A stretch of 64,000 nucleotides of DNA from the NCBI GenBank assembly GCA_973895155.1, contig OZ316891.1:32313208-32377207 (forward strand). Direction: 5' to 3'. Position numbers and translations under genes: made by a program. The notes under the pieces are model-generated. The model was not told where the DNA came from, did not search any database, and was given only the letters and a program-made list of their open reading frames with translations. Below are positions 3,121-63,606 of this stretch, in pieces; the stretch's first letter is position 1, and each line of letters opens with the position of its first letter. The stretch comes from Marsupella aquatica (taxonomy: Eukaryota > Plantae > Marchantiophyta).

Positions 3121-3696
3121 ATTTGTTTGTTGGATCTTTTTGGTGGGATTAGCACTGGATTGGCTGCTATTCTTCAGGCATGAATTCCTGTGCGTCGTTA
3201 TTTGTATGTGGAGACAGATGAGACAGCACGGAGGGTCTTATTGCAACATGTGGCTATGTTGGTGGATAGATATCCACAGTTGTTGCCAGTGGATGTTGTT
3301 TGTGGTTATCAACATGCACTACCTGCTGATATTTCATTGTTGGGGGCGGATCATCTACATCGTGTTGGCCCCATTGATTTGGTGATTGCTGGTTGGCCAT
3401 GTCAGGGCCAATCTAGAGCTGGCATTGGGCATGGACTTCATGATCCACGCTCTGCATTGTTTTGGGAGATGTTACGGGTGCTGCGTCATCTCCAGCTACA
3501 TCAGACACAGTCTCCAGCATACATTTTGGAGAATGTGCCATTGTTAGGTGATGATCATAGTCGGATTGTTGCCAGTGTTCACCAGGTGAGGTCTTGGATT
3601 GGACTTGCTGTGTTATTGGATGCTGCACGTGTGGGTTCTCGTGCACATCGTCCACGCTTGTGGTGGACTAATTTGATCCCATGTGAGGTGCTGAAG
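3121..3696 (+). pseudogene. DNMT3-like cytosine-5 DNA methyltransferase domain within the element A polyprotein (motifs I-VIII; truncated by insertion)
   Basis: Motif I LLDLFGGISTG, II YVETD, IV LVIAGWPCQGQS (PCQ 3397-3405), V RSALFWE, VI YILENVP (ENV 3529-3537), VII LLDAARV, VIII AHRPRLWWTNL (cf. DNMT3 AHRARYFWGNL). One in-frame TGA at 3181-3183; motifs IX-X are lost at the TGTCAC junction at 3697. Confidence 0.92.
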
Positions 3697-3998
3697 TGTC
3701 ACTTGCCTATCCAACGATTAATACATGCAAACCATACTTTTCCTTGCTTAAATCGTTGGTATCGTATTACGGGGTCATGGAGGGACGCTATTTGGAGGAT
3801 TTCCACACCTAAGGAGGAGTATGTTTGATTCCGCTCCCGGAAGTGTACTTTTTGATCAAGTCTACCGACTGGTCTCTCCATTTTTGATCAAGTCCAAGGG
3901 ACTGGTCCTACCATCTACAACTCATGCCCACCAGGTGAGTGCTGTCACCACCCCCCTCCTTTCTTGGGCAAGCATACAAACATTTACAATAAGATTTG
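3697..3998 (-). mobile_element. Element X: 3' end of an LTR related to the element D LTR (left fragment)
   Basis: Abrupt junction at TGTCAC (minus strand ...GTGACA). Minus-strand ccgggagcggaatcaaacatac (3819-3840) resembles D-LTR ccggcggcggaatccaaacatac (28676-28698). Continues after Bianca at 22990. Confidence 0.6.
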
Positions 3999-40424: not shown

Positions 40425-41579
40425 TTACATAGTCACTGGTTTGGCCCTAACATTAATAATATCCACACAATGACTAAAGCTACTGGTAGGTAAAACTTTG
40501 GTAAGCATGTCTGCCGCATTCTCCTCTAAAGCCACCTTCTCCAGAAACATCTGCTTCGTCTCAATCACCTCACGGATGAAGTGATAACGAATATCAATGT
40601 GCTTTTTCCTGGCATGGAACACAGGGTTCTTAGCCAGATGCAAAGCACTTTGACTGTCGCACAGTAGCACCGGTCTTTCAAGTGAAAGACCCAGATCACT
40701 CACCAATCTCCGTAGCCAGATCAGCTCCTTGGTTGCCTCACATGCAGCCATGTACTCAGCCTCAGTAGTAGACAACGCAACACAAGATTGAGTTGCCAAC
40801 TTCCAGCTGATACAACCTCCACCCAGCATAAACACATAGCCTGTAGTAGACTTTCTGTTATCCAAGTTACCAGCATAATCTGAATCTACAAAACCTTCCA
40901 ACTCTAATGTAGAGTCTGCTTTACCGTCAAATAAGATCCCACAATCTAAGGTACCTTTCAAATACCGCAAAACCCACTTCACTGCTTCCCAGTGAAGCTT
41001 ACCAGGATTTGCCATAAATTTGCTCAAAATGCTAACAGCGTGGGCAATGTCAAGTCTAGTGCATGTCATTGCATACATCAAACTACCCACAACACTATCA
41101 TAGGGAACATGTTTCATCGCCAGTCTATCACTCTCACTAGAAGGGCAATCATTCTTTGAGAGTTTAAAGTGGGAGGCCAATGGAGTACCAACTGGTTTTG
41201 CATTCTCCATTCCATACTTGGCAAGTACCTTCTCCAAATACTGCCTCTGAGACAACCATAATTGCCTTTGCTCCCTGTCACGATGAATCTCCATCCCTAG
41301 TATCTTCTTGGCCTGACCCAAGTCCTTCATTGAAAACTCCTTACTCAGCATTGCTTTCAGATGGGCAACATCAGACTTATTCTCAGCCAGGATCAGCATG
41401 TCATCCACGTACAATGCCAGCACAATGTAACCAAAGCGTGAGTAATTCTCCACCTCCTTCATGTAAATACAACAATCATGTTCACTTCGTGTGAACCCTG
41501 AGATAACATGAAGGAATCAAAACACTTATTCCACTGTCTGGGACTCTGCTTCAATCCGTATAACGAGCGCAAGAGCTTA
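40425..41579 (-). pseudogene. Copia E RT (C-terminal part) and RNase H
   Basis: KLLRSLYGLKQSPRQW, LYVDDML, MKDLG, FVDSDYAG, STTEAEY, CDSQSA, KHIDIRYHF, ADMLTK; frameshift near 41490. Confidence 0.93.
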
Positions 41580-41648
41580 TACCAATCCTCGTTCCATTCA
41601 GTATTTTGGAACAGAAACAGACGACTCATATTTTTTAATATTATTGAT
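41580..41648 (-). other. Filler DNA at the left CACTA end, resembling plastid ycf1
   Basis: AT-rich; translates SIILKNMSRLFLFQNTEWNEDW, similar to the recalled Ycf1 motif IIxKNIxRxLLFQxPEWxED. Confidence 0.55.
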
Positions 41649-41659
41649 AAAACAATGTA

Positions 41660-42360
41660 TTTTATGACCAAAACAATGACTATTAATCAGGTCTTTTTAA
41701 CAAAACAATGACGCAATTGTTCTCGTCTTTCCAGACACGTCACAACGGACATTTTGGTCACGGTCCTTTTGGACAAATGACGCTAAAAACATGTGGTCAT
41801 TTCATACTATCCTAAATGACCGTTTTTATGATATGGTCATAAATGTTGAACGGTCCAAAATGACGACACAAATCACCATCGACGGTCAATTGCCGTTGAC
41901 CGTCGATGGTCCCCGTACCCAATCACACAACGACACGTGGCAATAAAAAAACTAATAACATTGGTCATTTTGGACAGTCCAAAATGACGTACATTATATA
42001 ACAAATCAAATAGTGACACGTGGTTCAAAGAGGATTCACCATTTGGCAATATATTTGGGTCATTTTGGACGTGTCCAAAATGACTACAGTATAAACAAGT
42101 CATATTGAGACACGTGGTTCAATTGGGAGAAGACACGTAAAGATACACATTAGTCATTAATGACATGTCTTGAATGACATAAAGTGAGTCATAGTGGACT
42201 TGTTTATAATGACCATGAGAAAGGTCATTGTATATGTCATTCTTTGAATCATTTAGTCTATGTCTTTAATGACCAGAGTTGAGTCATATTGGTCACAAAG
42301 ATAGTTGTGAATAATGACCATTACATCAGTCATTCTAGCTAGTCATTTAGTCATTCAAGC
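41660..42360. repeat. CACTA left subterminal repeats (AATGAC / GTCATT in both orientations)
   Basis: Many aatgac/gtcat motifs, mirrored at 60350-60720. Confidence 0.85.
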
Positions 42361-42722
42361 CAATCATTCAGACGAAGTATTCAATGATTTGGAGAAATTC
42401 AAATTTAAGTGATCATGATAGATAAAACTTGATGTCAATCAAAAATCATATATTACAAAGCCATTCAATAGAGTTGCTAAATGAAAACTTAAAGAAACAT
42501 TCGATATATATCACAAATCCAATTGATATTCATACAAGATACCTTCATAAGTCTCACGGTAAATATTGAACTCAATGCAAATTTATGAAACAAAATTACA
42601 TTGACATCAATAATATTAGATTGTCAATTGTTACAACCTGACATACCAATCACTCTGCATGTTTATAGAAAAACAGAGTTGTCATTCTATCATGTCTATT
42701 GTTTCTTGATAGAGTGCTATTT

Positions 42723-45560
42723 CTATTGCTTCTTAAGCAATCTAGAGTTCCATAGGGCATTCATCCCTTTCACATCAGATAATTTAGACTGGTTCTCCCC
42801 TGAATTGGCAAATGGCAATGCCACATCTACAAACACTTCAATCACACGCACTCGCAAGAAAGGGCTTTCAAAATCTGCACAATGAAACTTATCTTCTCCT
42901 GGCAGCCCTGTCACCTCACCTTCTGCCACTATCATGGAATTGTCCACAACGCTCTTCATCTTCACCAAATCTCCTCTTGCAAACTGTGAACAACACATTT
43001 TGTTAAAAATGCAATAAACAGAAATTGAAAGATAGAAGAACACTCAAATCAAACACACATTTACCTTTGCAACGGGGTTAGGAGACTGCATTGGTTTCTT
43101 CTGTGCAGGTGATGCATTTGCTGAGGATCCTTTCTTCCTTTTCTTCTTTCCCTTTCTAGTTGATGGAGTGTCATCCTGTTCACTTGGAATGGGAGTTTCT
43201 TTTGGCAACTCAGATGATTCTGGGGTTACATCTGGTGTCAACTGAGTCGACTTATCCTCTGGCAACTGAAAGACATCTGAAATGGCTTCTTTGGGCAACT
43301 TAGATGGCAAAAGGTTCACTTCCAATTCAGTTTGCTTTAGAGTACTGTTAGCTGTGTCAGTTGGTCTTCCCTGCGACACAGGAGGCTCCCCTAAAGATGC
43401 TGTCATAAAACACACACAAAAGAAATGCATAAACAAACATGTATACACCAGCAACATATAATCACACTAAAAACATGCAAGAACATTATAAACATGCAAT
43501 GACATATACACATCACAATAATTACATTGAATGGACAGTGTATACATGATAGAGAATTTTACCTTCATTATCGCCTGAAAAAGTAAGAGATCGCTTTCTA
43601 CTACCTTGTTTGGTAGTTGTAGTCAACTTACTGTGACTAGGCACAACTGTTGGAACTTGTGCATTACTGGGGTGATGTGCCATCCACGTAGTCATCATGT
43701 TTGTCAACTCCCTCACAGTGCCTTTCAACTCAGCGACATCCAATTTCACAGCCCCAATGGCAGTGATCTCTTCTTTTGAATGTGGGGTCTGTAAATGAAC
43801 CACAAACCAACACAACAGTCTCACTGTCAAACTTACAAACGACACAACACTGGCTCTGTCAAATGGAGAATGATGTACAAATCAAATTGGTATGACAATA
43901 CTCACAGCTGATCCATGTCTGTTTCCTTGCCCCAGTAAGCTAGCACTTTTACCCTCCCCACTTGCCAATGATGGGCTCACCTTTGCTCCCACAAAACTAC
44001 CAGTCTGACCTTCTGCACTTGCCAATGATGGGCTCATTGTCACCTTTGGCAATGAACCCTGACTACCATGGTTTTCTTTCAGGTCAGATATACCTGGGCT
44101 TGATCCTCTCTTCTGCTTCTGTTCAAACACACAATGAATGAGAAATCACAGAGTTTGTTTTCATCAAGATTCACAAACAAGACAGAATTGATAGTGAAAA
44201 TGATAGACAATTTACCATTCTCTTTGCTGCTGCAGCATGCCCTCCCCTTCCAAAGTGAGAGGTATCTTGCACTCGTGCTCTTTTATCAGTCATCTGTTTA
44301 CTCAAAGATATCAATGCTGGACTGGTAAAATGAGATACCAAAGCTGCCCATTTCTTTGGATCAACACCAGATGGCCCAAGTTTGGTTGGATCCTCATTGC
44401 AAACTTTCTTCCAATAAACATGCATTTTATGGCGCTCTCTCTTCAATATGCCACGACAATGACTCTGGAATTTGGTGTTAATAAATTCCCCACCCACATA
44501 CTCCCACTCAGCTGCCATGTTATTCCACACTGTGGTTGTATGAACTTGTGGATGATCAGTCCATTTTGGCTTTGATACATCAAAGACTCTGAGTACGTTG
44601 CCACGAAGTTCCTCCAGCCAGTATTGTTTGTTGCCATCAGAATCATCAATATCATTGTCATAAATCTGCATTTCATAGACAATGTCAGATCATAACTCTG
44701 GAATTTATGCAGAGTCCAGGTTTTATACACACAACAACAGAGAGGATCAGATTTGTCTAAATCTACAAACAAGTACAATACTCACTTTAATGTGTTTGGG
44801 CACCTCTCCGCAATCCCTTCGTTGTTTGGCAGTATTATCAAACTGCTTCTTAGCATGCCTTCGTTCCCTGCGCATCTCAGAGGCCCCTCCTGCAATGCAC
44901 ACACATGCATTCAATCAAAAAATATGTACATGATTGAAAAGTTGAGCAAATGTACTTGCATATGCAACACGAGCAGATTGTGTATTACCTGAAGATCCTC
45001 TGGAATGTAGTACATCAGATTGACCTGATCTGCCTTCAGATGCTGATGGAACCACTAAACAAACACACAACACCAAAGCACTTCAATTAATTTCATTTCC
45101 AAGTAGAATATCAACTTCCAAACACACCTGAAAAGTAGAACAGTACAATCCACTCACTTTCATATAAGAGTCCAGTGTCTGGGTCTTTCCAACATCTCAC
45201 TAGCCCACCTCCACCAGGCCCAGTCTTCTTAGGACCACAATTTTGTTTCTGTACCTACATCATGGACAACGTAAGCATATCAACATATAATTTGAAAAAG
45301 GGACAAGGATCCCTTCCTATTAGGATGATGAAGTTCAAGCATTACCTGTTGTGCACTCTCTGGTTCTGACCCTCCAATGTCAGAATCCTCAGTGTCATAC
45401 TCAGAAGGAGAACCATAGCCATCATCACCAAACTCTGCCATGTTCACCTTGGTAACTTCTGATAGTCTAGAGCTCCTCCTCTTTGGCAATGTTTCAGTTG
45501 AAGTACCTTTCACCAAAGCAGGCTTTCCTCTCTCTCGTTGTACATGTGTGGTTGGGCCTC
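42723..45560 (-). CDS. CACTA TnpA/Tnp1-like multi-exon gene (exon limits approximate)
   Basis: Ptta/En/Spm-like KWAALVSHF..QMTDKRARVQDTSHFGRGG (44171-44671); terminal exon VAEGEV..FHC..LRVRVIEVFVDVALPF (42723-~42985); short exons separated by T-rich GT-AG introns. Confidence 0.75.
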
Positions 45561-45988
45561 TAAGGAACAAAGCAATCATCAACATACACCAATGCAGATC
45601 AAACATACATGCAAAATGAATCTACAACACCATAACACTAGTACTTATGTACAGGATCCATACTAGTATGAGACCAATCTGGAATATGAAAACAGAACAT
45701 GAACCTGACAACTCCATCTACTGAATCAAATTTGCAATAGACATATCAACACACACATCAGCTTGCAGTCTGGCCCCAGTCCTAGATCACGCATAATTCT
45801 GACATTATGCTCTATGTTCCGATTTCGGGCCTCCTCATAAGGATTCACAGAATGTGACAACCCTTGCAATCTTCCTTTCGCAGGCTGCATTCACCAACTG
45901 CACAAATGGATAAACCATTAGTCTGATTTCATAAATAGTCCATACATGTAGTCCATCTATGGACTTCACACACCTAGCTAAAACCTAT

Positions 45989-48900
45989 TCACTGCTTAGG
46001 CCTGCCCTTTCTTGCAGATCCCTCTGCATCTCTGCCTCGTTTGGGACCAGTACTTGGTCCTGGATTTTCTCTGGACCTACAGGCCTTAGCCAATTCGATG
46101 TGTAATTTGACATTGTTTTCCATTGTAGCATGGAAATCAACGTCTGTGTAATCACCTAACACCCTTGTGGACCTGGATTCTTTGTGGAGGATTGTTCTCC
46201 ATGCTATCCCCTTCTCATTGGGGTGGAAGAAAACCTGCTCCACTTGCTTTGGGAAAACGTAATCCATTTTCTTGGACACACCCAGTTCTCTATGGAAATT
46301 CACCTGCCAAAGACCAGACTTGGTATACCTCATACTGGCAGAGGATTTAGGAGTCCATGATGGATCTGCCCATTTCCCTTTGAAAAGAATCACCTCTTTC
46401 CTCAAGCTGCCATAATTCAGTACCAAGATATCTGTCAAGGCCCCTACATACTGTACAGATTCTTCTATGGTTGCACCAGACCTGTCCACTCGCTTCTCAG
46501 TGAATGTAGAAGCCATCCCAGAATCAAAAGTGCTGAAAGCACCAGAATCACAATCACTCAAACACCCCAAGGATGGAATAGTCCTCCAATGGTGCCCATA
46601 GGCTCTACATGCCCTATACAGTCGTGCCTTCAAACTAGGTGGTGTGGAGTATGCAGATAGTAATGACCGCTCAGACTCTTTCTCAAAATTATGGGTATTG
46701 ACTAATGTTTGAAACCATTCCCTGAAAGGTGGCAATTCTTGGCAGTCTACGGGAAATTCCACTGGTTTTCTTCGATTGGTAGGCTTCCTCATCCACTCCT
46801 TCCGGAAATCCACTCTTCGTTTGGTAACAGTCTCATTGGTAGCATCATATATCCTGCATGGCAACAACAACACTGAAGACATTAGTGCACGATCCACCAT
46901 GAATATACAAACACAATGGGGAAACATAATTATGATCCATATGCCTAAGGATAGGAGAGTTTCTAGGGTTTATGTACCTATACCATGGAGCCACTGTCTC
47001 TTCATTCTCTAATATATAATGATGCATGGCCATCATTTCAGACCAATCCAAAGTTATCGCCTTTGCAGCCCCTTCCAAAACAATGCCTGCAACGCCAGCA
47101 TCCTCCTCCAACTCCCAGGTTCGTTTTCCCTCTCCCTTTGCATCAATCATGTATTCAGAAAGAAATCCCAAAGACTCATCTAATACATAGCCTTCAGCCA
47201 TAGAAGCCTCTGGACGTGCCTTGTTTCGTACATAACCCTTCAATACCTTCAGGTTCCTCTCTATTGGGTACATCCATCTGCCTGTAACTGGGCCACACAA
47301 GTCTAATTCCTCCACTAGGTGAATCATTAAATGGGTCATGACATCAAAGAAGCTTGGTGGAAAATGGATTTCCAAAATGCAGAGAGTGAATGCAACATCC
47401 ATCATCAAATTCTCATACATTGAAGGGTCCCACACCTTCGTACAGATCTGGCGATAGATATTGCTCACCCCAGCTATGGCCAAGCGAACCCCTTCATCAA
47501 GTAATCCCATTGTTGCCAGAGGGAGAATCTGTTGCATGAGTTGGTGGAAATCATGTGATTTCAACCCAGAGAGTTTCTTGGATTTTGTAACACACTTTGC
47601 CAAAGAACTTGAAAAACCAGTGGGCCCTTTCAAGGTCAATAAAACCTCCAAGAACCTTGTTCTTTCCTTCTTGCTCAGGCAATATGGGGCTGGGGGCATC
47701 AACAATTTGTCATCCTTACGCTTGGGAGCTGGATTGGGTACAAGCCATAGGTGTTGGCGCACCTGTAAGAGCTTCATGTCTTCTCTCACAGAAGGAGTGT
47801 CCTTGGTCCCAATGATAGTGTGCACAATGTTGTGTGCAAGATTCTTCTCACAGTGCATGGGATCTAGACAATGGTTAATGAGTAGTTTCTGCAGTGGACA
47901 CACAATTCAGAAATTAGGGCATTGAATACAACTTTTGGCATCACTGGGCAGTAGTTTGTGCAGTGGACACAATTCAGAAATTAGTGCATTGAATACAACA
48001 ATTACAAAATCTGGGCTACAGGAAGTATATGAAGAGAATATATTTCAAAGTCATATGAAGAGATTGCAGAAATTCATTGTAGTAGTATGGAGTCTTACAT
48101 TCCAATAGGGCAACTTGTACAGACCAGTAGCCCTCTTCACTCCATGCACCTTTATGGGGCATTTCTCATCCTCAACCTTGGTTCCTCCCTTCTTCAAATA
48201 TTCTGTTGTCTCGTCTCCCCACTTCTTTCTATCAGAGCTTGTCATTCTACACGGTGCAGGTCGACTCTCAATTGCACCATCAAAGTATTGTGCACTATCT
48301 GGTCTACGAAAAAGATGCCTTGTTGCTAACCATCGACGGTGGCCACTGTACTCTAATTTCTGCAAGTGCTTAGAACCACGTGCCACACATTCTGGCCCAC
48401 AGATGACACATCCTTTGTATCCAGAGTGTTGTTGTCCAGATATTAAACCATATGCAGGGTAATCATTGATTGTCCACAATAGCACAGCCCTAAGGTTGAA
48501 GTGTTGAGACAATCCTGGGCGTGGCAATTTGTCAAAGCAGGGCACTCCTTTCTTCCACAACAGCTCCAACTCCTCATAGAATGGGCCCAATATTATGTCT
48601 AGCTGTTCCTCTGTTACTGAATCAGGTCCTGGAATCAGCATAGCTAGCATGACAAAGAACTTCTTGGTGGTAAGCCAAGGAGGTAAATTGTAATTCAACA
48701 ACAGTATTGGCCAGGTAGACCAAGCTGTGGAATTATTCCCAAAGGGATTCACCCCATCAAGTGCCAACCCAAATCGCACATTCCTTGGTTCAGCTGCAAA
48801 TTCCCGATCAATATTTGTATCCACATGCTTCCAAGCCTTTGAATCTGCTGCGTGCCGAACCATGTTGTCTGTGCTTCTATTCTCATGATGCCAAGTCATG

Positions 48901-49982
48901 AGTTTAGATGTACCAGCAGTGGCATACAATCTCTTCAACCTGGGAATTATAGGGAAATACCGCACTACCTTCCTTGCCTGTAATGAATTCCCCACTCTCT
49001 TCATCTTGGGCTGCTGACACACTGAACAGTTTTCTAACTTGGCATTCTCACCCCTAAAGAGCATACAACCTTTCTCACAGACAGGGATTCTCTCATAATC
49101 CAAGCCAAGCTTTCTCAATAGCTGCTTTGCAGCATATAAGTTCTTGGGCAGATTATGCTCTGTAGGCATACCATGCTCCCCCATCAAAGACAACAATGCA
49201 TTCACTCCTTTGTTTGAGAATCCATGGCCATGACAGATGTTCAGCAGAAGCAACATGAATGACACAACATCTATTTTGCTGCCTGGGAACAAAGGTTGCA
49301 TTGCTGCATCTAAAGATAACTGTGCAGGATCAGTCTCCACAGGAGTTTTGGAGGTTTCAAGGGGGTTTACAGGATGGGCACCTCCTTCACTCTCATCATC
49401 CCCAAGTACAAAATCCAAGTCAAAACGGTCCTGATCATCTAGCTCATGCTCAGGGGATTCTTCACTGGTTCTCAGCAACGTTTCTTCCAGTAGAGCCCTG
49501 ATATGTTCTTCGACATCTATAGTTGGATGTTCTTGAACATCCACAGTTGGATACTCTGGAACATCCACAGTTGGATACTCTGGAACATCTACAAATAAAT
49601 GTTCTTCAACATCTACAGTTGGCTGTTGTGCACAGGTTGCCTGCTGAAGGTTTGCTACCCTCAATGCCTCAGGGCCATGTTGTGACATGTAGTCAGCACC
49701 CCACTCTTCATCAGAAGAGTCCTGTCCCTCTCCCACCCACACTCGACATGCAGGGTACCGACCATGTTTAATAAGGTGCAGTCTAGCAGTATTCCGATTA
49801 GTCCTATAATTCCCTTTGCAGTTCACACAAGGGCAGTACATCTTATGGTCCCCACTCTTGTGGCAGGCCTTCTGTTCTCGAACCCACAAAGCATCATCAC
49901 GATGTTGTACTCTAGCTGGATGGAAGAGCGGCAACTTTGGAGTTCTACCCACACCTAACGTATTCTGTGGCAATTGTGCCAT
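45989..49982 (-). CDS. CACTA TnpD/Tnp2 transposase; predicted join(49982-48099, 47888-46978, 46853-45989), 1219 aa, no stops
   Basis: CPCVNC zinc region, RYFPIIPRLKRLY, HAADSKAW, LALDGVNPF, YNLPPW, WTINDYPAY, LDPMHCEKN, GLKSHDFH, FFDVMTHLMIHL, WMYPIER; GT-AG junctions keep the frame. Confidence 0.92.
49515..49625 (-). repeat. 24-bp coding tandem repeat (PTVDVPEY-like, ~4-5 copies) in Tnp2
   Basis: acatccacagttggatactctgga and variants. Confidence 0.8.
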
Positions 49983-50579
49983 GCTAGCTTGATTGAAATT
50001 GTATTCAAACTATGATTTTCAAACTGAATCAGAGTGACATGCATACAAAATTGGGCCTACCGTCACAGTTGTACAACCGATGCCAACCACAGTCCAATTG
50101 CTCAAACCCACAGAGCCCAGTTTCTCAAATCCACTGTAGTAGGGCACCTTCTCCTTGCATACAAATAGAGCATCACATACAGTGTCATCAGAATGATACT
50201 ATGAACGTAAATCTCTGTGCCTTCATCATTTCCAGTATTTGTTTGCCTATTAGGAATGTGAGCAGACAGGTCTGGAATAAGTAACGTTTGTGACACCAGT
50301 GACAAATTTACAAGTGAAGTTTAGACATCAATATGGAGGAAAGTCACACTCAAAGTACATGCTTGAAAATCAGAATCCTACCCTGGAAAAGATAATAAAG
50401 TTGATTTCTCAAAATTAATTGCCTCAATCCGCAATGCACTGTCGTAGAGTGTGTATACATGAGGAGTTCATCAAACTGCATATAAATAGTCCACATGTTT
50501 TAGCACTCTGAAAATTGTTTAAGTCCACGTGAAACCATCAAAAAGCTCTATCTCAAGTTTGTGTTCGATCCAGCCTCAA

Positions 50580-51239
50580 TCAAATCCAAGATATGTGGCT
50601 CCTAGCAGGAGTGCCTAGTGTAGGGTCAATGTCATGGTCAGGACAGTAAAACATCCCCTTCTTGGACTGCCCATGCGCTGAGTGATCCCAAATTGTTCGA
50701 TCATGGGCAAATCCCCTCTGCTGGATAAACAGCAGGCAGTCTTTGTGCCATGCCTTAGGACACCTCATGCACTGAACCAAAAAGCCATTAGCCCCATCAT
50801 TGGGCCCCTGTCCACAAGTAAGACAAATATGGAGTCCACATGATGCTGTGCCAGGAACCAAACACTGCCGACAGTAAAACCGGGCACAGAGAGAGTCTGG
50901 ACATTTTCTTACCTCTTCACCAATTTTTCCAGACACATGGCACTTAAAGCAAGAATGTTCCTCATTCTTGCAATCAACACAAAGCCATTCTCCAACATGG
51001 CCATCAGCGAGGGATATAGTTGGGCATAGCCATTGCTGACCCAAAGGACAGGAAACATTCTTATGGAAATGTCGGTGGCAAGGCCCATCACAAACAATGA
51101 GATCCCCTCCCTCATCACAAATCGCACATACATGTGGACTATTCTGGTTAATCTCAATGTCTGAATATAAGGACAATTGAGGTGCTTGAGAGGATTCACC
51201 TCTGCAACGATTCATGGCCTTCTGCTTATTGCGAGCCAT
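50580..51239 (-). CDS. EDM2/NSD-like multi-PHD-finger protein inside the CACTA (219 aa) with an H3-tail-like N-terminus
   Basis: ATG at 51239 after tgcag|gacc; MARNKQKA; CAICDEGGDLIVCDGPCHRHFH..WLCVDC, CFKC..C..CARFYCRQC, CGLHICLTC..CMRCPKAWHKDCL, FYCPDHDIDPTLGTPARSHI. Confidence 0.85.
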   Translation of the reverse strand: MARNKQKAMNRCRGESSQAPQLSLYSDIEINQNSPHVCAICDEGGDLIVCDGPCHRHFHKNVSCPLGQQWLCPTISLADGHVGEWLCVDCKNEEHSCFKCHVSGKIGEEVRKCPDSLCARFYCRQCLVPGTASCGLHICLTCGQGPNDGANGFLVQCMRCPKAWHKDCLLFIQQRGFAHDRTIWDHSAHGQSKKGMFYCPDHDIDPTLGTPARSHISWI

Positions 51240-53599
51240 GGTCCTGCACACTCAGACCCTACATCAGATTGTGAAACAAGAAGGAATAACAGGGTGCAGT
51301 ATGACACAAAAGAATGAGGGTGCAGCATAAAATATGACATGTAACCACAAGGGTGCAACATAAACCAATGCTTTATAGATGGCAAAGCATTTAGGACTGA
51401 GCAGCGCAAATAACCTTGGCCTAGATGATTGGAAGCAATCACAAATATTGCAACCTGTATGCCTTTGCTTGCTGTACAGCAGTGCTCACTCACCCTGCCT
51501 TTTTAAAATCTGTAAGGGCAACACAGAAAAAATAGCAATTGAGTTTCAGCAAAGCATTCATTTGGCTCTCAAGTTTTAAAATGGACAGAGCAAACACAAC
51601 AATGTGCACAACAAAGCACAGAGAGCAACAAAACTCCAGCAAACTGGGACTCAGGCAAGAGATACGAATTTTAGCAGCGAAATCAAATCAAGATTCGGAC
51701 CTGTGAGTTCAACATGCAGTGCTCACTCACCCTGCCCTTTTTTAAATCTGTAAAAATCAAGTTTTATTGTGTGCCTTCTACATCTTAAGCTGCTGCACAC
51801 ATCTGTTACAGAACCATAAGTTGCTTTACTCTCAACAAGCTGCTGGTCCACCCACTTTTTCAAAAGCTGCACCGTACTCTATCTTCGTGCACAAATGACT
51901 ATACCGGGCTGCTGTCAGAGACCCTTACGAAGGATTTAAAATTGACCAAGCTGATTTTAGTTTAGTTTTGTCCAGTTTGCAGACCAAAGGAAATCATGTG
52001 GCTGTATTCATGGAGTTGTATTCATTGCTGTGTATGGATGTTGTGTGAACATCAGACAGTTAGCTGTAAATTACCATAGTTGAAGAGCAAGGCTTGTACA
52101 AAAGCCACTAAGGAATTCTCTGAGGTGGCACAGCAGTTGGCAAACCACACACGAAACTCTGAAACTTTTTGGCGACAAAATTCTACAGAGTCGCTGCTGG
52201 AATCAAGTGAGGATTCACCATACATGCTTGCACTTCTCTTCAGTAAAAAAAAGAGAAAAGAAAAGGGCTATGATACAGAGGGATGTCAAAAGAAGAGTAA
52301 GGAAACCAATTCATTGAGGAACATAGACAGACTAAGGAAAACATCATACAATGGAAAACTAAGGACTACATTGTAATAATAAGAGATCAAGCTCACCTTG
52401 CACCACAAACATTGTCAGACGACAACAAGACAACAAACTGAATTGAACATAGCAGACAAATCCAACAAGTAGCAATCAGAAATCAACAGCAGACAGACAA
52501 AGGACAACTTGGTCAGAACTCGGGCACTTGATTCAGTTGTGGTAAATAGCTGTTCAGGTTCTGGACAAGCAAGAGCAATACGTGAGCAGACTCCAGAAAA
52601 ATCATCTCTTGAGATTGAGGAGAAAGGCATTTCCCAGCCAGCTTACTTATGTCTTGAAAAATGTATCGGACATCGTGGACGCTGGGCCTCAGCTGCTGGC
52701 CGCAAGGGAAGATTTTGCCAAAACAAACAATAAAGCTCGAAGATAGTTAAATTTCTTAGGTCTTTCTAAATGGGGACTGAATTAGCAATTAGAACCAGTA
52801 AACCCTGATCTTGGGCAGGCAGAGAGAGAAGAGTCCGCGCCTAATACTTATGTCTACCCGAATTTTACTGGGACATATGAGCATTGGGATGCCATTGCAA
52901 AGCAGAATTTTGTAGCAGTGGAAGGAATCAACATAGATAGCAGTGGAAGGTCGCAGTGGAGCTAGCATGGTACAGGGAAGGAAATGCAGGCATTGTGCGA
53001 GAAAGTGCAATGGCTAGTTCTATGGGATTTCCTTCTCCAATCCATGACAGTGCCGACGACACGCACAACTGCTACAATCAGTGCGCGTCCAGGATGCTCC
53101 ATCGCATCACGTCAGGGAACTCAACATTCTAGACATTCGAAAACTGCATTCACATTTCTCTGCAAAGGGAACTCAACATTGTAGACATTCAAAAACTGGT
53201 GCAAAACTCAGGCACTTAGAGAGAGAGGGACAGAGAGAGAGCGAGAAAGAGAGAGCAAATAGTCTCTTAGCAATCGGAGCTTCTCTGTCATTGCCATAAG
53301 CATACTAGCAGACACTAAGCAACAGAACAAGAAGGCAACATTGGATTCATGGACTGACAGCACATTGGTAGCACATTGGCAAAAGCAAAGCAAAAATGCA
53401 GAATGAACAAATGGCCAGAAGGGGAAGAAGCGCAAAATTGCACAACTGACCTTCTCGCACCTCAGCCCAAACTCGCTCCCACAGATATAAGTTCTCGCAG
53501 CTCCTTGATGGAACCTCCTGTAGGTTCTCGCCGATTGCAACTCCTCACCCACAGCTTCTTGCCGATTGTAGCTTGCTGCTGATTGCAACTCGTCGCTGA

Positions 53600-53840
53600 T
53601 TTGCAGCTCGTCCTCCGCTCCTCACCCGCAGCTTATCGCCGATTGTAGGTCGTCCTCCGCTCCTCGCCCGCAGCTTATCGCTGATTGTAGGTCGTCCTCC
53701 GCTCCTCGCCCGCAGCTTATCGCCGATTGTAGGTCGTCCTCCGCTCCTCGCCCGCAGCTTATCGCCGATTGCAGCTCATCCTCCGCTCCTCACCCGCAGC
53801 TTATCGCCGATTGCAGCTCATCCTCCGCTCCTCACCCGCA
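53600..53840. repeat. 42-bp minisatellite, ~5.7 copies, GC-rich, in the CACTA 5' region
   Basis: Unit gcagcttatcgccgattgtaggtcgtcctccgctcctcgccc (starts at 53628, 53670, ...). Confidence 0.92.
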
Positions 53841-54404
53841 ACAATGACAAATGTAAAGAAGCTATTGCCTTGACCCTGCAATCGGGCACTCCAAAGCCCG
53901 AATGTCCTCCAAAGCGCAGGGTCCTCCAAAGAAGCTCCCAAGTCCTACCGAGGTGCTCTGCCGACCGCGCGCAACAAGCTCAAAAACAATTGTAGCCTGA
54001 ATGGCTTCGGGTCGGAGCTCCTCCTCTAAACCTTGCAAATGGTCACTAAAACAATGCCACGTCCAACGCTTCACTCAAACAATGCCTCACCCAATGCTTG
54101 CCCGAACAATGCCTCGCCCAACGCTTCGAAGGGTGTCGAAGCTTGGTGGAATGGAGCACAACGCTGCGCAACCCTAAGCCCTTGCAATGTGCACACAAAG
54201 GCATGCCAAGAAATGAGCACATCGAGCGTTGCCCTCTCGATGTTTTTTCAGGAAAAAGGGCTCCTGTTGGTACGCAAGAACACTTAGCGGGAAAAACCTA
54301 ATGCTAGACCCCTAAAGCCCGTAAAGGTAAGGTATTCTGTTGGATGGGGATGGTGGATATTGTGGGTCATTAATTAGGGTTATATTCTGACAATATCTCT
54401 CACA

Positions 54405-54595
54405 TGTCTGGACCCCCCATAAGGCCCTAGGGAAGTTGAGACTAGGTTAATAACAATGTAAACCCCCCCCCCATAAGGCCCTAGGGAAATACCAACTATA
54501 GAGGTTAATAACAAGGTCCGGACGCCCCCATAAGGCCCTAAGTAGGGAAGGCAAGGTTAATAACTCATAATGTCACGACCCCCCCCATAAGGTCA
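54405..54595. repeat. Four ~55-60-bp repeats with the core C5-9ATAAGGCCCTA
   Basis: cccccataagg at ~54414, ~54468, ~54525 and ~54582. Confidence 0.8.
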
Positions 54596-55099
54596 TGGCT
54601 GTTTGTGTAGGTGCCAACAAGAATGTTAAGGACCAATGTTATATATAAAAAATGATGCTAGCGATATAAAAGGTCCGATATATGCCCGCGATATAAACCC
54701 ATAACCCGCATGCATGAACACCATTTTGGACTACCTTATTGTCTCACCATATGATAGTGATACTCATCCAAATATTAGCATTTAATAGCTCTCCACTCCT
54801 GACTCAATTGAGAGAAACCCTCATTCATGACTCAAGCACAATTATAGGGTCCCTTACATGCTACATGACCACTACATATGAGGCTATGTTGTGTAAGAGT
54901 TTTTGAGAGCATTACACCAAAGCATTAATAAGTGAGCCTTCCCATGACTATATGACCTCCAATATGCCAACATTAATGGCTTCCAATATGACAGCGTGAG
55001 TGACCCCACGTTTAGTCCTCAGATTGAAGCACCATTTAATTCACAAATGACCCAATGAACTCCCTTGTACCTCCAAAGAGAACCCCCCAATAGCCTTTG

Positions 55100-58000
55100 T
55101 AAAGACCACATTTCCAGTCATTTGGTACTTCTGACCTCTAGTATGACAACCAAGATTACCCTAATTTGAGGTGTTTCCATTAATGACACACCATGAGGGA
55201 CCTCTCTAATGACCACATATGCAGTCAATTGCTCCAAATGACCTCTAACTGACTACCAAAATGACCCTTATTGTAGTCATTGACATTAATGACACACATT
55301 ATGTGAAAATGACCCAATGAAGAGTATACTACCTCTCGGAGTGCCCCTTTACAATTCCTTTGGAATTTAATAGAATATATCCAAAATCCAAATATTGGCA
55401 CAAACATGACATAGTTATATAGAAGGACATAGTCTTCCACTAGTATTGCACTATATACCTCTTGGAGAGACAAAAACAATTTTTGTATGCATGCCTTAGG
55501 ATGGTATGCATGCATGGTGACACTTTTGGCAAATCACTCCAAAGTTGTATGACTTGGGAGTGATTTCCCCAAGGTTGCATCATCCCTTAAGTAATTGCAA
55601 AAACATGGCTCCAAAGTGCTCATGGTGCAACTAGTGGTTGGAGAATAGTACGGTGGGTATAGTACCCCGCACCTTGTGGAGAGGTTGCCACCTTCATGTA
55701 GAGCCCCATGGCACACTAGGGCCACCTTAAGCTCCTAGACCCAAAAGGGTCATTTCTGATGGTACGTAATGACACCATGAGGGACCTCTATAATGACCCC
55801 ATATGGAGTCATTTGGCACAAATGACTTCCAAAAGGACTGCCAAAATGACCCTCACTGCAGTCTTTGGCATTAATGACACACTATTCCTCCAAAATGACC
55901 CAATGAAGATTACAACACCTACTCACAATGCCTTAAGTCTATTCATATGCAAAATGGAGTATTCCCCATCCAAACACCGGCACAAACATGACACAATTAC
56001 ATCACAAGATGACAACCTTCCATTGGTGTTGCGCTACTTCTTGGAGAGACAAAAAATGGCTCCATTTGCGCTTGGATACGGTGGTATGCATCCATGGTGA
56101 CACTTTTGGCAAATCACTCCAAAGTTGTATGACTTGGGAGTGATTTCCCCAAGGTGCATCATGCCTTAAGTAAATGCAAAAACATGTGTCCAAAGTGTTC
56201 ATGGCACAACTAGTGGTTGGACGATGATGAGTATAGTGTCCCGCACCTAGTGGAGGGGGTTCTCACCTCTATGTGGGGCCCCATGGCACTCTAGGGCCCA
56301 CCTCCAGCCCCTAGCCCCAAACTGGTCATTTGTGCTTCTGCTTAATGATTGCACAAGGGACCCCTCAAATGACCACAAATCCAGTCATTTGACTTATGTG
56401 ACAGCCCATATGACAGATTTAATGACCCTACTTGTAGTCATTGGTATTTATGACACCAATTTTTTCAGAAATGACTCAATGAAGATTACACTACCTTCTT
56501 GAGTGCCCCATCACTATTCATTTGCAAAATAGAATATTCCCCATCCAAACACCGGCACAAACATGACACAATTACATGGAACGACAACAGCCTTGCACTA
56601 CTTCTTGCAGAGACCAAAAAAATGGCTTCATTTCCTTTAGATAGGATGGTATGCATCAATGGTGACACTTTTGGCAAATCACTCCAAAGTCGTACGACTT
56701 GGGAGTGATTTCCCCAAGATTATATCATCCCTTAAGTAAACACAAAAACATGGCTCCAAACTGCTAATGGTGCAACTAGTGGTTGGAGAATAGTAATTAT
56801 AGTATTTGACACCTAGTGGAGGGGTTGCGAGCTCTATGTGGTGCCACATGGCACTCTAGGGCCCACCTCCAGCCCTTAGCTCCAAATTGGTCATTCATGC
56901 TTGTCTTCAATGACTGCACTAGAGACCCCTCAAATGACAACAAGTCCAGTCATTTGAATTATATGACATCCCATATGACCAATTCAATGACCCTACTTGT
57001 GGTCATTGACACTTATGACATGACTCTGTTAAAAAATGACCCAAAGAAGGTCCTAGCACCGCCAGAGAGAGCCCGCTCTACATTCCTTGCAAAAATGGAA
57101 TAATCGTATACCTTTAAACATCAGACACATCATAGAGGGAAGCACCACTACCACACCCATTCCATTGGTGTTGCGCTACCTCTTGGAGAGACAAAAAAGG
57201 GCTTCATTTGCGTTTGGAATAGTGGTATGCATCCATGGTGACACTTTTGGCAAATCACTCCAAAGTCATACGACTTGGGAGTGATTTCCCCAAAGGTGCA
57301 TCATGCCTTAAGTAAACGCAAAAACATGTGTCCAAGGTGTTTATGTCGCAACTAGTGGTTGGACAATGATGAGTATAGTGTCCCGCACGCAATGGAGGGG
57401 TTCTCACCTCTATGTGGGGTCACATGGCACTCTAGGGCCCACCTCCAGCCCCTAGCCCCAAACTGGTCATTTGTGCTTTTCCTTAATGACTGCATAAGGG
57501 ACCCCTCAAATGACCACAAATCCAGTCATTAGACTGATATGACTTTCCATATGACAGTTTTAATGACCCTGCTTTTAGTCATTGATATTTATGACGGTCC
57601 ATTGCTCACATATGACCCAATAAAGGCCCTGGTACCTCCAAAGAGAGCCCGCTTTAGATTCCTTGCAAGGTTGGAATATTCCTCTTCCCTAAACCCGCAC
57701 CCACACCATACAGGGAAGCACGACTCCCCTGCCCATTCCATTGGTGCAGCACCACCTCTTGGAGAACCCAAAAACAACTTTTATTTGCCTTTGTATGTGA
57801 TGGTGTGCATGCATGGCAACACTTTTGGCAAATCACTCCAAAGTCGTACGACTTGGGAGTGATTTCCCCAAAGGTGCATCATGCCTTAAGGAAACACAAA
57901 AACTTGTGTCCAAGGTGTTTATGTCGCAACTAGTGGTTGGACAATGATGAGTATAGTGTCCCGCACCTAGTGGAGGGGTTCTCACCTCTATGTGGGGCCC

Positions 58001-59770
58001 ATGGCACTCTAGGGCCCACCTCAAGCCCCTAGCCCCAAAATGGTCATTTGTGCTTTTCCTTAATGACTACATAAGGGACCCCTCAAATGACCACAAATCC
58101 AGTCATTAGACTGATATGACTCTCCATATGACAATTTTAATGACCCTACTTTTAGTCATTGGCATTTATGACGGGCCATTGCTCACATATGACCCAATAA
58201 AGGCCCTAGTACCTCCAAAGAGAGCCAGCTTTAGATTCCTTGCAAGGTTGGAATATTCCTCTTCCCTAAATCTGCACCCACACCATACCCTAAAAGCATG
58301 ACTCCCCTGCCCATTCCATTTGGGCAGCACTACCTCTTGGAGAACCCAAAAACAACTTTTATTTGCCTTTGTATGTGATGGTGTGCATGCATGGCAACAC
58401 TTTTGGAAAATCACTCCAAAGTCGTACGACTTGGGAGTGATTTCCCCAAAGGTGCATCATGCCTTAAGGAAACACAAAAACATGTGTCCAAAGTGTTTAT
58501 GTCGCAACTAGTGGTTGGACAATGATGAGTATAGTGTCCCGCACCTCGTGGAGGGGTTCTCACCTCTATGTGGGGCCCCATGGCACTCTAGGGCGCACCT
58601 CCAGCCCCTAGCCCCAAACTGGTCATTTGTGCTTTTCCTTAATGACTGCATGAGGGACCCCTCAAATGACAATAATTCAGGTCATTCCACTTATATGACA
58701 TCCAATGTGACCATTTTAATGACCTTTCTTGTAGTAATTGGCATTTATGACGGGCCATTGCTCACATATGACCCAATAAAGGCCCTAGTACCTCCAAAGA
58801 GAGCCAGCTTTAGATTCCTTGCAAGGTTGGAATATTCCCAAACCCTAATCCCACAGCCACACCATGCTAAGAAGCACGACTCCCCTGCCCATTCCATTCG
58901 TGCAGCACTACCTCTTGGAGAACCAAAAAACAGGTTTTATTTGCCTTTGGATGTGATGGTATACATCCATGGTTGCACTTTTGGCAAATCACTCCAAAGT
59001 CGTACGACTTGGGAGTGATTTCCCCAAAGGTGCATCATGCCTTAAGGAAACACAAAAACATGTGCCCAAAGTGTTTATGTCGCAACTAGTGGTTGGACAA
59101 TGATGAGTATAGTGTCCCGCACCTAGTGGAGGGGTTCTCACCTCTATGTGGGGCCCATGGCACTCTAGGGCCCACCTCAAGCCCCTAGCCCCAAAATGGT
59201 CATTTGTGCTTTTCCTTAATGACTACATAAGGGACCCCTCAAATGACCACAAATCCAGTCATTAGACTGATATGACTCTCCATATGACAATTTTAATGAC
59301 CCTACTTTTAGTCATTGGCATTTATGACGGGCCATTGCTCACATATGACCCAATAAAGGCCCTAGTACCTCCAAAGAGAGCTAGCTTTAGATTCCTTGCA
59401 AGGTTGGAATATTCCTCTTCCCTAAACCTGCACCCACACCATACTGAGAATGCACCCACACCATACTGAGAAGCATTACTCCCCTGCCCATTCCATTGGG
59501 GCAGCACTACCTCTTGGAGAACCAAAAAACAACTTTTATTTGCCTTTGGATGTGATGGTATGCATGCATTTATTTGCAAATTAAAATATTCCCCGTCCAA
59601 ACACCGGCACAAACATGACACAATTACAACAAAGCATGACAACCTTCCATTGGTATTGCCCTACTTCTTGGAGAGACAAAAAGGTTTCATTTGCCCCATG
59701 GATACGATAGTATGCGCGCATCCATATATGATGACACTTCTGGAAAATCACTCCAAAGGTGTATGACTCT
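55100..59770. repeat. ~575-bp satellite-like tandem array, ~8 copies, inside the CACTA
   Basis: Anchor aaatcactccaaag at ~55531, 56111, 56676, 57252, 57830, 58408, 58986 and 59745; the units are rich in aatgac/gtcatt. Confidence 0.92.
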
Positions 59771-59849
59771 ACAATTATGATAGGTGTCTGGAATGACTAT
59801 TGAGTATTTTAATCTTCATATCTCTTGGGTTCTTTAATGACTCTATAAG

Positions 59850-60350
59850 TAGTCATTTATGTAATAAGTCCATAATGACTGTATGTTATTGTAAACATTG
59901 ATATATCCTGATTTTTAGATTGCCCTATATTTAGTCATTTATGCGACAAGTCCATAATGACAGTATGTTGTTGAAAACACCGATATATCCTAATTTCAAG
60001 ATTGACTGTGGAGTTAGTCATTTATGAGAAAAGTCCATAATGACGGTATGTTCTTGTAAACACTGATATGTCCTAATTTCAAGATTGACCCTAGAGTTAG
60101 TCATTTATGGCAGAAGTCCATAATGACAATATGTTGTGTAAACACTGATATATTCTCATTTTCAGATTGACCCTAAATTTTGTCATTTATGAGAGAAGTC
60201 CATAATGACGGTATGTTCTTGTAAACACTAATATGTCCTAATTTCAAGATTGACCCTAGAGTTAGTCATTTATGGCAGAAGTCCATAATGACAATATGTT
60301 GTTGTAAACACTGATATATTCTCATTTTCAGATTGACCCTAAATTTTGTC
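59850..60350. repeat. ~83-bp tandem repeat, ~6 copies
   Basis: gtcatttatg....aagtccataatgac at ~59852, 59934, 60017, 60100, 60182 and 60266. Confidence 0.9.
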
Positions 60351-60743
60351 ATTTAACACCGTTGGTTAAAATGACGATAATACATTTTTTGTCATTTATC
60401 ACCGTTGTCCAAAATGATGCAAATAGATTTTTGGTCATTTCAGTCATTGTCCAGAGTGACTATAATGTTGCTAAACACTGATTTATCATTGTTGTTATTA
60501 ATTGTGTCATTTAAGACATGTGTCTAAATTGACCATTTAGGGAAATTGGGTCATTTTGGTCGCATCAGTCATTATAGACATTATACAAAATGACGAAAAA
60601 ATTAACATTTTGTCATTTCAGTCTATTGGTCATTGTGGACAGTCATTCCCCCGTCATTCTTTTTGTGTCATTAAAACTTTTGGTCATTTATTCATCTCTG
60701 TCATTGGGTGATTGGTCATAAAGGGCCCTGTTTTCTTCTAGTG
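60350..60743 (-). repeat. CACTA right subterminal repeats and TIR
   Basis: gtcatt arrays ending in ttttcttctagtg. Confidence 0.9.
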
Positions 60744-63606
60744 TTACACACCAAGTGTCTGGTCTTCTCATCAATAAAACCTGGAGGCTGAGTCATATAA
60801 ATCTCCACATCAAGCAATCCATGTAGGAAAGCAGTAATTACATCCATCTGATCTAACTCAAGATCATAGAATGCCACAATCGCAAGTAAAACACGGATAG
60901 TAATGAGTTTGACAACTGGTGAGAAAATTTCCGTGTAGTCCAAGCCCTCCTTCTGGGTGTACCCTTTGGCCACAAGGCGAGCCTTGTAAGTGCCATCCTG
61001 CTTCTTCTTGTACAACCATCTACACGGAACCAGTGTTTTCCCGCGAGGCATGTCAGTTAAGCGCCAAGTTGAATTCTTCTTCAAAGAATTCATCTCCTTC
61101 AACATCGCCTCCATCCACTTATCCTTCTCTGGAGAGGCCATAGCTTCTTCATAGCTAGAGGGGTCTCCATCTTCAGTAAGCAAAATAACACCAGGATCAT
61201 CGTCATGCTCAACAACGTGAACACGCGGATCTACAAAACCAAATCTATCAAGGGGTTGGCCAAAATTGGCCCTGGTGGAGCGCCTTGGTTGAGGAATTGC
61301 ACCTCTACCAGAGAGACCAGCAGCTTCCTCATCGCCACCAAGCTCCACCGTAGTGGGTTCCTCCACCTGTTCCTCCTGAATATCCCGGGGTCTTGACAAC
61401 CATTCTTCGTCAAAAACAACATTTATGCTCACAACTGCCTTGCAATCGACAGGATCCCACAATTTATAGCCCTTCTGCCCAGGACTAAAGCCTAGAAAAA
61501 TACATTTCTTAGACTTGGGATCCAACTTAGACCTGTGTGTCTGCTCAATGTGAACATAGGCAGCACAACCAAAAACTCAGAGTCTAGAGTAATCAGCAGG
61601 TCTCTTATACCACAACTCAAATGGAGTCTACATCAACTTACTACTATGCAGTGACAGATTGTAGACGTATGCAGCTTGGTTGACAGCTTCAGCCCAAAAG
61701 TTGTTGGGCAACTTGGACTTACATAGCATGCTGCGTGCTTTCTCCAATAATGTCCGATTCAACCGTTCTGCAACTCCATTCTGCTGCGGGGTCTCCGGTA
61801 CAGTGTAATGACGCTTGAGGCCAAGGTCTCGACCAAATTGATCAAACTCATTGGACTTATACTCGCCACCGTTATCGGACCGAACACACTTCAACTCCTT
61901 CCCAGTTTGTAGTTCTACCATGGCTTTCCACTCCTTGAAAATCTCAAAGACTTGAGACTTCTCCTTCATGTAGTACAACCAACACATTCGAGAGTAATCA
62001 TCTACAAACGTCACAAAATATCTGGCTCCACCCAACGACGGCTCCGGCGCTGGACCCCAAACATCCGAATGTACATACTCAAGAATTTCATGAGAATGGT
62101 ATGAACTAGAACTGAAACTCACTCTCCTCTGCTTGCCAAAGATGCAATCTTCACAGAAAGAGAGTTTACCAGATTGAGCGCCTTGAAACAAATCTCTGTT
62201 TTCCAAGGCTGCCAATCCTTTACCACTCAAGTGCCCCAACCGTGCATGCCACAAATCTATGGCTTGTGTGCGACCAGATGTTGAGGGTGCTTCAATTGAA
62301 GCAGCCGTAGATGACTCTACAACAGATGTTGCCGCTGCATCCAAACATTCCACCACATAATCCACATGCTCCACTCTAGGAGCAATGACATCTCCTTCCA
62401 AGATGTACAAATTATTCTGCCGTAGCGCCTTAATCAAAGATACATCATCTTTGACGACAAAGAGCGCACCATCACGTGCAATGAAATGAGATCCACCAGC
62501 TTCCAAAGCACCAAGAGAAATCAAATTCTTAGAGATGTCTGGTATGTGTCTGACTCCCATCAGTGCTCGCACAACACCATCAAACATCCGGAATTTGATA
62601 GTCCCCATGCCAACAATCGCACATCGGACTCCATTTCCGATTTCCACAGTACCGGTACAAGGTTGGTAAGTGGAGAAATATGATTGCGTTGGACACACGT
62701 GATAAGAGGAACCCGAATCCAACATCCATTTATTGTCATACACAGAATTCACAGCACCAATACATAGCACTTCAGCAGCATCCTCATTATCAGCAATCAC
62801 AATACCAGCCGACGATGAGGACGCACCATTGGAAGCAGGATGCTTCTGCTTTGACAGAGAAGGATAATTCCACTTGGTGTGGCCCTTCTCATGGCAATGC
62901 CAACACTGCACTTTCTTACTACGGGACTTAGATTTAGATCTACTATGTGATTTAGATCTAGATTGATCCGTAGTACGCTCCGTCGATCTGCCTCTAACCA
63001 CTAGGGCAGCAGACTCATTGTCACGGCCAGAAAGTTGTCGCTTGCCCCATTTTGCAAGAATGGTAGCCTTTACCTCATCCAGCTTCAACGTAGACTTGTC
63101 ATGTGTGATGACTGTCACCAACGTCGAATAGCTCTGAGGAAGCGACATCAACAAATGCATCGCAAGATACTCATCGATCAACTTGTCTCCCGCCGTGGCC
63201 ACCTCGTGCACAATCTCATCAAAGAGACTGAGGTGATCACGCATGTTGCCACCATCCTTCAACTTCAACCTGAACAGCCGCTCCAAGTGATAAATGCGAG
63301 TAGTCAACGAAGTACTCTGGTATAGCTGAGTAAGCATATCCCAGATTTTCTTGGCATTCCAATCCATCCCCAACACGTTCTTGAGAATGTTGTTTGCCAG
63401 AACAACTCAATTGTGCTACACGCCTGCACCGACATGTCCTCCCACTCCTCATCTGTTAGATTCGAGGGTTTCACTCCAGTGAGGGTCTTCTCAAGACCCT
63501 GCTGGATCAACACATTGGTCACCTTCCGAGTCCAGAGGCTGAAGCTGACCTTCCCGTCAAACTTCTCCACCTCAAACTTTGGCGCCGCAAGCTTTCTTGA
63601 AGTCAT
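60744..63606 (-). pseudogene. Copia E gag-PR-IN and N-terminal RT
   Basis: KFEVEKFDG, degenerate knuckle CWHCHEKGHTKWNY, WMLDSGSS, LWHARLGH..CEDC, VHSDVWGP, RSDNGGEY, NGVAER, YKARLVAKG, QMDVITAFLHG; frameshift ~63400 and TAG 61628-61630. Confidence 0.93.

Follow-up and report, generated by a model that had tools for sequence, protein, structure and literature searches.

A standalone EDM2-type triple zinc-finger protein with a histone H3-like tail in a CACTA-type element of Marsupella aquatica

A CACTA-type transposable element of the liverwort Marsupella aquatica carries, upstream of its transposase, an open reading frame (ORF) for a standalone EDM2-type triple zinc-finger protein of 219 amino acids (aa) with a histone H3-like tail, and this ORF is under purifying selection. 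We judge the chances to be about even that the protein acts as a counter-silencing accessory of the element. The window, i.e. the whole stretch of DNA analysed, comprises 64,000 nucleotides of contig OZ316891.1, and all coordinates refer to it.

The element and its open reading frames

The element occupies 19,164 bp (19.2 kb; 41580-60743, minus strand). This span was deduced from an exact 3-bp target duplication (41577-41579 and 60744-60746), from an empty site in sequencing run X2, in which contigs pass from 41579 straight into the sequence beyond 60746, and from the left boundary shared with run X1, whose contigs start at 41580 with another flank. Both flanks belong to one Copia reverse-transcriptase region amid nested LTR elements. 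The 5' end of the element consists of a CACTA terminus (60739-60743, minus strand) followed by dense subterminal ATGAC/GTCAT motifs. The same motifs are present at the 3' end (41580-42400), so that subterminal repeats are dense at both ends (41-43 kb and 55-61 kb), but the terminal bases at 41580 do not mirror CACTA. Since CACTA-type terminal inverted repeats are thus not present at both ends, the element is named CACTA-type with one aberrant end.

The transposase gene on the minus strand comprises a Tnp2 exon of 652 open codons (48051-50009; PF02992, E 4.6e-66; PF13963, E 6.3e-5) and exons for DUF4218 and DUF4216 (45989-47906; PF13960, E 8.7e-36; PF13952, E 3.3e-5), the Pfam combination by which CACTA/EnSpm elements are recognized. 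The original prediction of a CACTA element is thus upheld by Tnp2, the target duplication and the subterminal repeats, with the restriction that CACTA is found at the right end only. Five more open frames of 106-172 aa without a convincing Pfam match (42723-45621, minus strand) are located where we presume that TnpA-like exons would be expected. A CpG-rich region with 42-bp repeats (53400-54300; CpG observed/expected 0.95 versus 0.22-0.25 in coding parts) is likely to represent the promoter or first exon of the element. Repeat analysis of the expanded 5' subterminal region (55450-60380) revealed seven units of ~577 bp and repeats of ~83 bp. Each ~577-bp unit bears a near-palindrome of ~60 bp, and the ~83-bp repeats come after the units.

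The ORF for the zinc-finger protein (50580-51239, minus strand) runs from ATG to stop without an internal stop codon, as had been claimed beforehand, and lies on the same strand as the Tnp2, DUF4218 and DUF4216 exons. Its position between a GC-rich 5' region and Tnp2 was also described correctly, with the CpG-rich region on one side and the Tnp2 frame 570 bp downstream on the other. The term 'intronless', used in the same description, is supported solely in the sense that the ORF aligns unbroken to the cassettes of host proteins. An open frame of 219 codons at one given place is expected by chance with a probability of ~3e-5 at the local stop frequency. CpG depletion of the ORF resembles that of Tnp2 (0.25 versus 0.23), and a candidate splice acceptor is located 4 bases upstream of the ATG. 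A short duplicated segment further upstream (51480-51510 and 51715-51745, minus strand) has splice-acceptor/donor-like ends and is a possible micro-exon of the leader. A fusion of the ORF to Tnp2 was set aside, as the stop after the C-terminal tail motif is conserved.

Chromatin domains are found in three transposons of the window if a methyltransferase fragment is counted. This C-5 cytosine methyltransferase fragment (3184-3828, plus strand; PF00145, E 4e-12) is situated inside a Gypsy-like element, whose gag we take to lie at 256-1905. A canonical PHD finger (39313-39687, plus strand; PF00628, E 4e-11) closes a pol region of Gypsy-like character, in which reverse transcriptase and integrase motifs were read by eye; in its details it shows no relation to the EDM2-type cassette.

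The triple finger, its H3-like tail and the proposed function

The ORF product was characterized by means of Pfam, HMMER, an AlphaFold2 model and a variant test. Pfam returned PHD_NSD (E 6e-8), PHDvar_NSD (E 2.5e-7), PHD and PHD-1st_NSD. Column conservation in the family of related proteins marks 24 Cys/His positions, eight per finger, which would bind zinc. The three Cys/His clusters and the tail motif of the original prediction are present. Finger 1 (50970-51128, minus strand; C38 C41 C50 C54 H59 C72 C87 C90; PF23011, E 4e-4) is of the PHD type with an insertion and is further documented by matches to AIRE PHD1 and NSD2/3 and by column conservation. Finger 2 (50829-50951, minus strand; C97 C100 C113 C118 C123 C126 C134 H137; PF22908, E 6e-8) is shortened in the standalone family, and a His of host proteins is replaced by Cys123 (Cys in 21/22 family rows, His in 68/69 host rows). 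Finger 3 (C139 C142 C157 C160 H165 C168 C199 H202; PF23004, E 2.5e-7) and the EDM2-type tail motif, assigned from counts of its occurrence, together cover 50592-50825 (minus strand). The AlphaFold2 model, built from 91 sequences, reached a pLDDT of 89.3 and a pTM of 0.83, with residues 1-20 as the sole low-confidence part (pLDDT 51-53); the protein is predicted to be a single compact domain whose N-terminus is flexible. In a Foldseek search with the model, the matches to PHD/PZP and NSD structures were all partial (best E 3e-5, TM 0.2-0.3), and matches in the ESM Atlas were confined to NSD/EDM2-type PHD clusters (best 0.90, Streptophyta).

Standalone relatives were found at 82, 71 and 53% identity, and many more at 38-45%. 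Full-length members number 17 and measure 211-278 aa; 18 of the 32 family entries include the tail as well as the beginning of finger 1, while 14 are without one of them. The 24 putative zinc ligands are largely retained at ~40% identity across the family, and so is the stop right after the tail motif. Compared with host proteins, Gln32, His36 and His186 are conserved and the acidic run before finger 1 is gone. In a tree with 98 host-like cassettes the standalone proteins are united in a separate clade (SH-aLRT 100; the unlabelled P0005 falls inside), which was recovered in a second tree of 51 rows after six rows had been dropped (support 100/97); the 'alg' and 'out' labels of that tree are provisional. 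The stem from this clade to the sampled host EDM2s measures 1.37 changes per column.

The tail motif ties the cassette to EDM2: it is present in 14/14 EDM2-like and 16/18 standalone proteins and in 0/11 NSD-like ones. Named relatives include 'ENHANCED DOWNY MILDEW 2' of Selaginella and rice as well as liverwort proteins, and the long ones come from Marchantia, Riccia, Calypogeia, Selaginella (EDM2), Diphasiastrum, Mesotaenium and grasses. The ranking of the matches suggests a seedless-plant host. The EDM2 kinship proposed initially is confirmed. What had been called an intact EDM2-like triple-PHD gene is a three-finger cassette with the EDM2 tail in which the other domains of EDM2 are absent: PF12047 (RFD) is not detected in the 219 aa, and the family stops after the tail, where EDM2 has a C-terminal methyltransferase-like region. 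The protein is therefore classed as EDM2-derived and not as EDM2. Seven other proteins (P0041, P0087, P0121, P0108, P0025, P0093 and P0155) are short PHD-only EDM2 derivatives of 270-386 aa; two are named from grasses (Eleusine, Oryza), some have a basic MAR start, and in the tree they fall beside seed-plant EDM2 and outside the transposon family.

Host proteins have an acidic stretch ahead of finger 1; in the standalone family its place is taken by a basic tail with a motif resembling positions 1-9 of histone H3. The median net charge of the 30 residues before finger 1 is +3 in 26 family proteins and -12 in 93 others, and the missing acidic stretch may entail altered or lost H3 binding. In the window protein the H3-like motif covers residues 2-10 (51210-51236, minus strand) of the low-confidence, likely disordered tail, as judged by H3 comparison, family profile and pLDDT. 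The H3 tail reads 1-ARTK-4 and 7-ARKS-10 (PMC6028506). N-terminal motifs of the family are ARNKQKA (window), ARTKQKAYK (P0002), ARPKKMAKK (P0008) and SRPKVVARK (P0165). Identity to H3(1-9) amounts to 7/9 in P0002 and 5/9 in the window copy; the latter has no equivalents of H3 R8/K9 and falls outside the strict pattern [AS]R.K..A[RK].

This strict pattern was found in 11 of 26 family N-termini compared with a shuffle mean of 0.01, a test devised after the motif had been seen and made on related proteins, whose counts are not independent. For this set P0098 was dropped (no anchor), and near-duplicates and N-terminally cut entries were excluded. Of 1500 permutations of its letters, none scored better than the H3 order, which shared the top rank. 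In host-like proteins the strict pattern occurs before finger 1 in 0/104 cases and within basic 40-aa windows in 2/1005. It is present in four of nine subclades, and the looser [AST]R.K in seven of nine. When 22 proteins were aligned on R-x-K, position 1 was A/S/T in all of them (Ala/Ser in 19/22) and position 7 was Ala in 14/22. The motif begins at residue 2 in only 6/26 proteins, which means that the family does not conserve a free N-terminus of H3 type. The first 24 residues of P0002 had no sequence match in the PDB at E 10, and prediction of a complex between tail (2-31) and cassette (25-219) gave no answer (score 0.01, with a method untried on peptides) and is given no weight. The family thus displays what is expected of an H3 mimic, a conserved H3-matching motif in a predicted disordered segment, in weaker form in the window copy.

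A MAR start is also present in 13/135 other matches, seedless-plant EDM2-like proteins among them. P0011-P0015, P0028, P0029, P0044 and P0066, from liverworts, Selaginella, Mesotaenium and unnamed sources, have Met-Ala-Arg as their first residues, which most of the seed-plant EDM2 matches do not. An H3-like N-terminus may be old in the EDM2 family.

The H3-like motif had been missed in the original prediction, and it changes the likely mechanism. EDM2 fingers bind H3K9me2 (PMC7472560), and with EDM2 more transcripts reach full length in heterochromatin (PMC7472560, PMC10241880), where early polyadenylation is suppressed by the EDM2 complex (PMC7472560, PMC7529245, PMC3632883, PMC10241880). TnpA activates Spm elements while H3K9 methylation stays (10.64898/2026.08.24.746577), which leaves room for a reader-type helper. 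In the counter-silencing function that we consider evenly balanced, nucleosome tails in silenced chromatin would be bound by the fingers, and chromatin enzymes or readers of the host would take the basic tail for H3. As a bait, the tail could engage host proteins directed at H3K4/H3K9 in the vicinity of the element; alternatively, it could be an internal latch on finger 1, like the BAZ2B linker. The outcome would be better transcription of the downstream transposase through heterochromatin. Only tentatively do we propose the narrower version, in which an old plant CACTA lineage possesses a two-part counter-silencing protein composed of an EDM2-derived reader that finds heterochromatin and an H3 mimic that baits H3K4/H3K9 enzymes or readers.

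A fair though less likely alternative, in our estimate, is that the protein is a selected reader whose N-terminal motif is just a basic patch for nuclear import or DNA binding, and which acts as a dominant-negative competitor of EDM2 or as a recruiter of ASI1-AIPP1. The tail is indeed basic, its motif is often internal and missing from some subclades, and the EDM2 tail motif and the ligands are retained. Import signals, however, need no H3-like Ala/Ser spacing, whereas Ala/Ser at position 1 and Ala at position 7 are kept at the H3 spacing in the 22 aligned proteins; moreover, the RFD and the C-terminal parts of EDM2 are absent. A role in targeting, where the fingers tether the transposase complex to a chromatin state and the basic tail contacts transposase or DNA, appears rather improbable. 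It would draw on the same selection and fold evidence, on the insertion of the element in Copia amid nested LTR elements, and on the fact that gene and Tnp2 frame share a strand, with the gene on the upstream side. Yet there is a single insertion site in a window full of transposons, the conserved stop of the ORF shows that it is not a fused transposase domain, and the H3 spacing of the motif is left unexplained.

Copies, selection and origin

The stretch is present in five sequencing runs from three studies and three organisms, and four runs were mapped for coverage. All 30 bins of 41400-55300 were covered in each of these four runs (three organisms). In X1 one contig extends over the ORF and both flanks at a depth of 701, and contigs elsewhere on the element have depths of 750 and 800; although depth is no copy number, this suggests that the ORF travels together with the element. 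In X3, 364 contigs fell on the 660 bases of the ORF. Among the contigs listed, none bridged ORF and Tnp2.

Variants in the ORF alone were analysed in runs X1, X3, X4 and X5, with 40 of 54 variant rows scored. Each site was compared on its own with the window codon, and the resulting omega-like value is not a formal dN/dS. Of the 40 listed variants 23 were synonymous, compared with 11.0 expected if the same mutation spectrum acted at random (omega-like 0.28, p 2.5e-5). The synonymous excess was seen among both high-share (12/21) and low-share variants (11/19). None of the listed variants created a stop, and 24 were at third codon positions. One diverged ORF contig had Cys90Tyr and indels. The ORF is thus under purifying selection on its amino acids, and the neutral decay expected of passive Pack-CACTA cargo is not observed.

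We infer an ancient capture from an EDM2-like host gene, and the entire standalone family would be transposon-borne; transposon context was seen for the window element alone. In AU tests on trees without the tail, the family could be placed with liverwort, lycophyte, seed-plant or NSD-like rows without rejection of any of the four positions (p 0.13-0.68), and no donor lineage is therefore named. One distant relative, L001 from metagenome contigs, has DNA of 1.5 kb, which is frameshifted and without transposase. Viral and genome contig collections yielded no relatives. A word search for longer homologues scored 0/73 candidates; HMMER found many.

That the standalone family consists of host genes of seedless plants, one of which was picked up fairly recently so that the selection signal is partly that of the host, is very improbable. 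In its favour, no transposon context was seen for relatives below ~80% DNA identity, and all four donor placements are compatible with the AU tests. Against this stand the synonymous excess among copies on the element itself in three organisms, and the fact that no family protein looked up bears an annotated-genome name. The 14 incomplete entries of 32 and the frameshift of L001 also resemble decaying transposon copies, although short contigs cut genes as well. A passively transduplicated fragment without a role for the element, envisaged initially and to be recognized as a single copy with dN/dS near 1, is scarcely credible and largely refuted by the synonymous excess, for although capture of gene fragments by CACTA elements is well documented (PMC13317346), the ORF is multi-copy with an omega-like value far from 1, belongs to a deep family in which the start region, the position of the stop and the ligands are conserved, and is far from every sampled host EDM2.

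Novelty and comparison with known systems

Among the top full-text matches, which comprised few subscription papers and neither supplements nor Repbase, none described a transposon with an EDM2-type cassette or with an H3 mimic. PHD and EDM2 do not occur in a 2026 gene-capture review (PMC13317346), nor PHD or histone in an atlas of Arabidopsis transposon products (PMC13547354), and a further paper deals with viral mimics only (PMC11738798). Captured chromatin genes are already known as transposon accessories (VANC, TET/JBP); the combination of an EDM2-type reader with an H3-like tail in a transposon appears to be new. Counter-defence proteins of plant transposons have so far been found to act mainly via DNA (VANC, TnpA). 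If the proposed function is true, the element would act at the histone level, with a reader derived from EDM2, a host factor for transcription through silenced transposon sequence, and histone mimicry, known from viruses, would be extended to transposons. The protein is small, well folded in prediction and amenable to direct tests. Being a minimal EDM2 cassette of natural origin, it could help to determine the structure and the ligand of the EDM2 fingers; no plant entry was returned among the PDB matches to the EDM2-type cassette.

The window protein resembles EDM2 of the ASI1-AIPP1-EDM2 complex in its three atypical PHD-type fingers and C-terminal tail motif, with 30-36% identity over the cassette. 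It differs in that it consists of the cassette alone, without the RFD (PF12047, seen in seed-plant matches) or the long C-terminal part, in the His-to-Cys exchange and shortening of finger 2, in the basic H3-like tail in place of the acidic stretch before finger 1, and in its location in a transposon. PHD1-3 of NSD1/2/3 match the same Pfam models and provide the best sequence matches among solved structures (NSD3, E 2.2e-10; NSD2, E 1.2e-7). However, the match to NSD stops at residue 167, the EDM2 tail motif is missing in 11/11 NSD-like matches, and the window protein is without the SET, AWS and PWWP domains of the NSD methyltransferases (P0139 for comparison).

VANC of the VANDAL Mutator elements is likewise an accessory gene product, which has been suggested to derive from the captured host chromatin regulator MAIN (PMC13547354), but it belongs to another superfamily and fold. 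VANC binds DNA sequence-specifically (PMC10398659), whereas the window protein is a predicted histone reader, and anti-silencing is demonstrated for VANC and proposed from sequence for the window protein. TET/JBP dioxygenases of fungal EnSpm and other DNA transposons are chromatin-acting cargo with a proposed role in silencing escape (PMC12730594). Those are fungal enzymes acting on DNA methylation, in contrast to the non-catalytic putative histone reader of a plant element described here. Short H3-like motifs in disordered segments are also known from influenza NS1 and from G9a (PMC6028506), and in BAZ2B an H3-like linker dampens the protein's own PHD finger (PMC5663869). Unlike these viral or host proteins, the protein described here belongs to a transposon, and its putative mimic spans the K4 and K9 spacing beside a triple finger.
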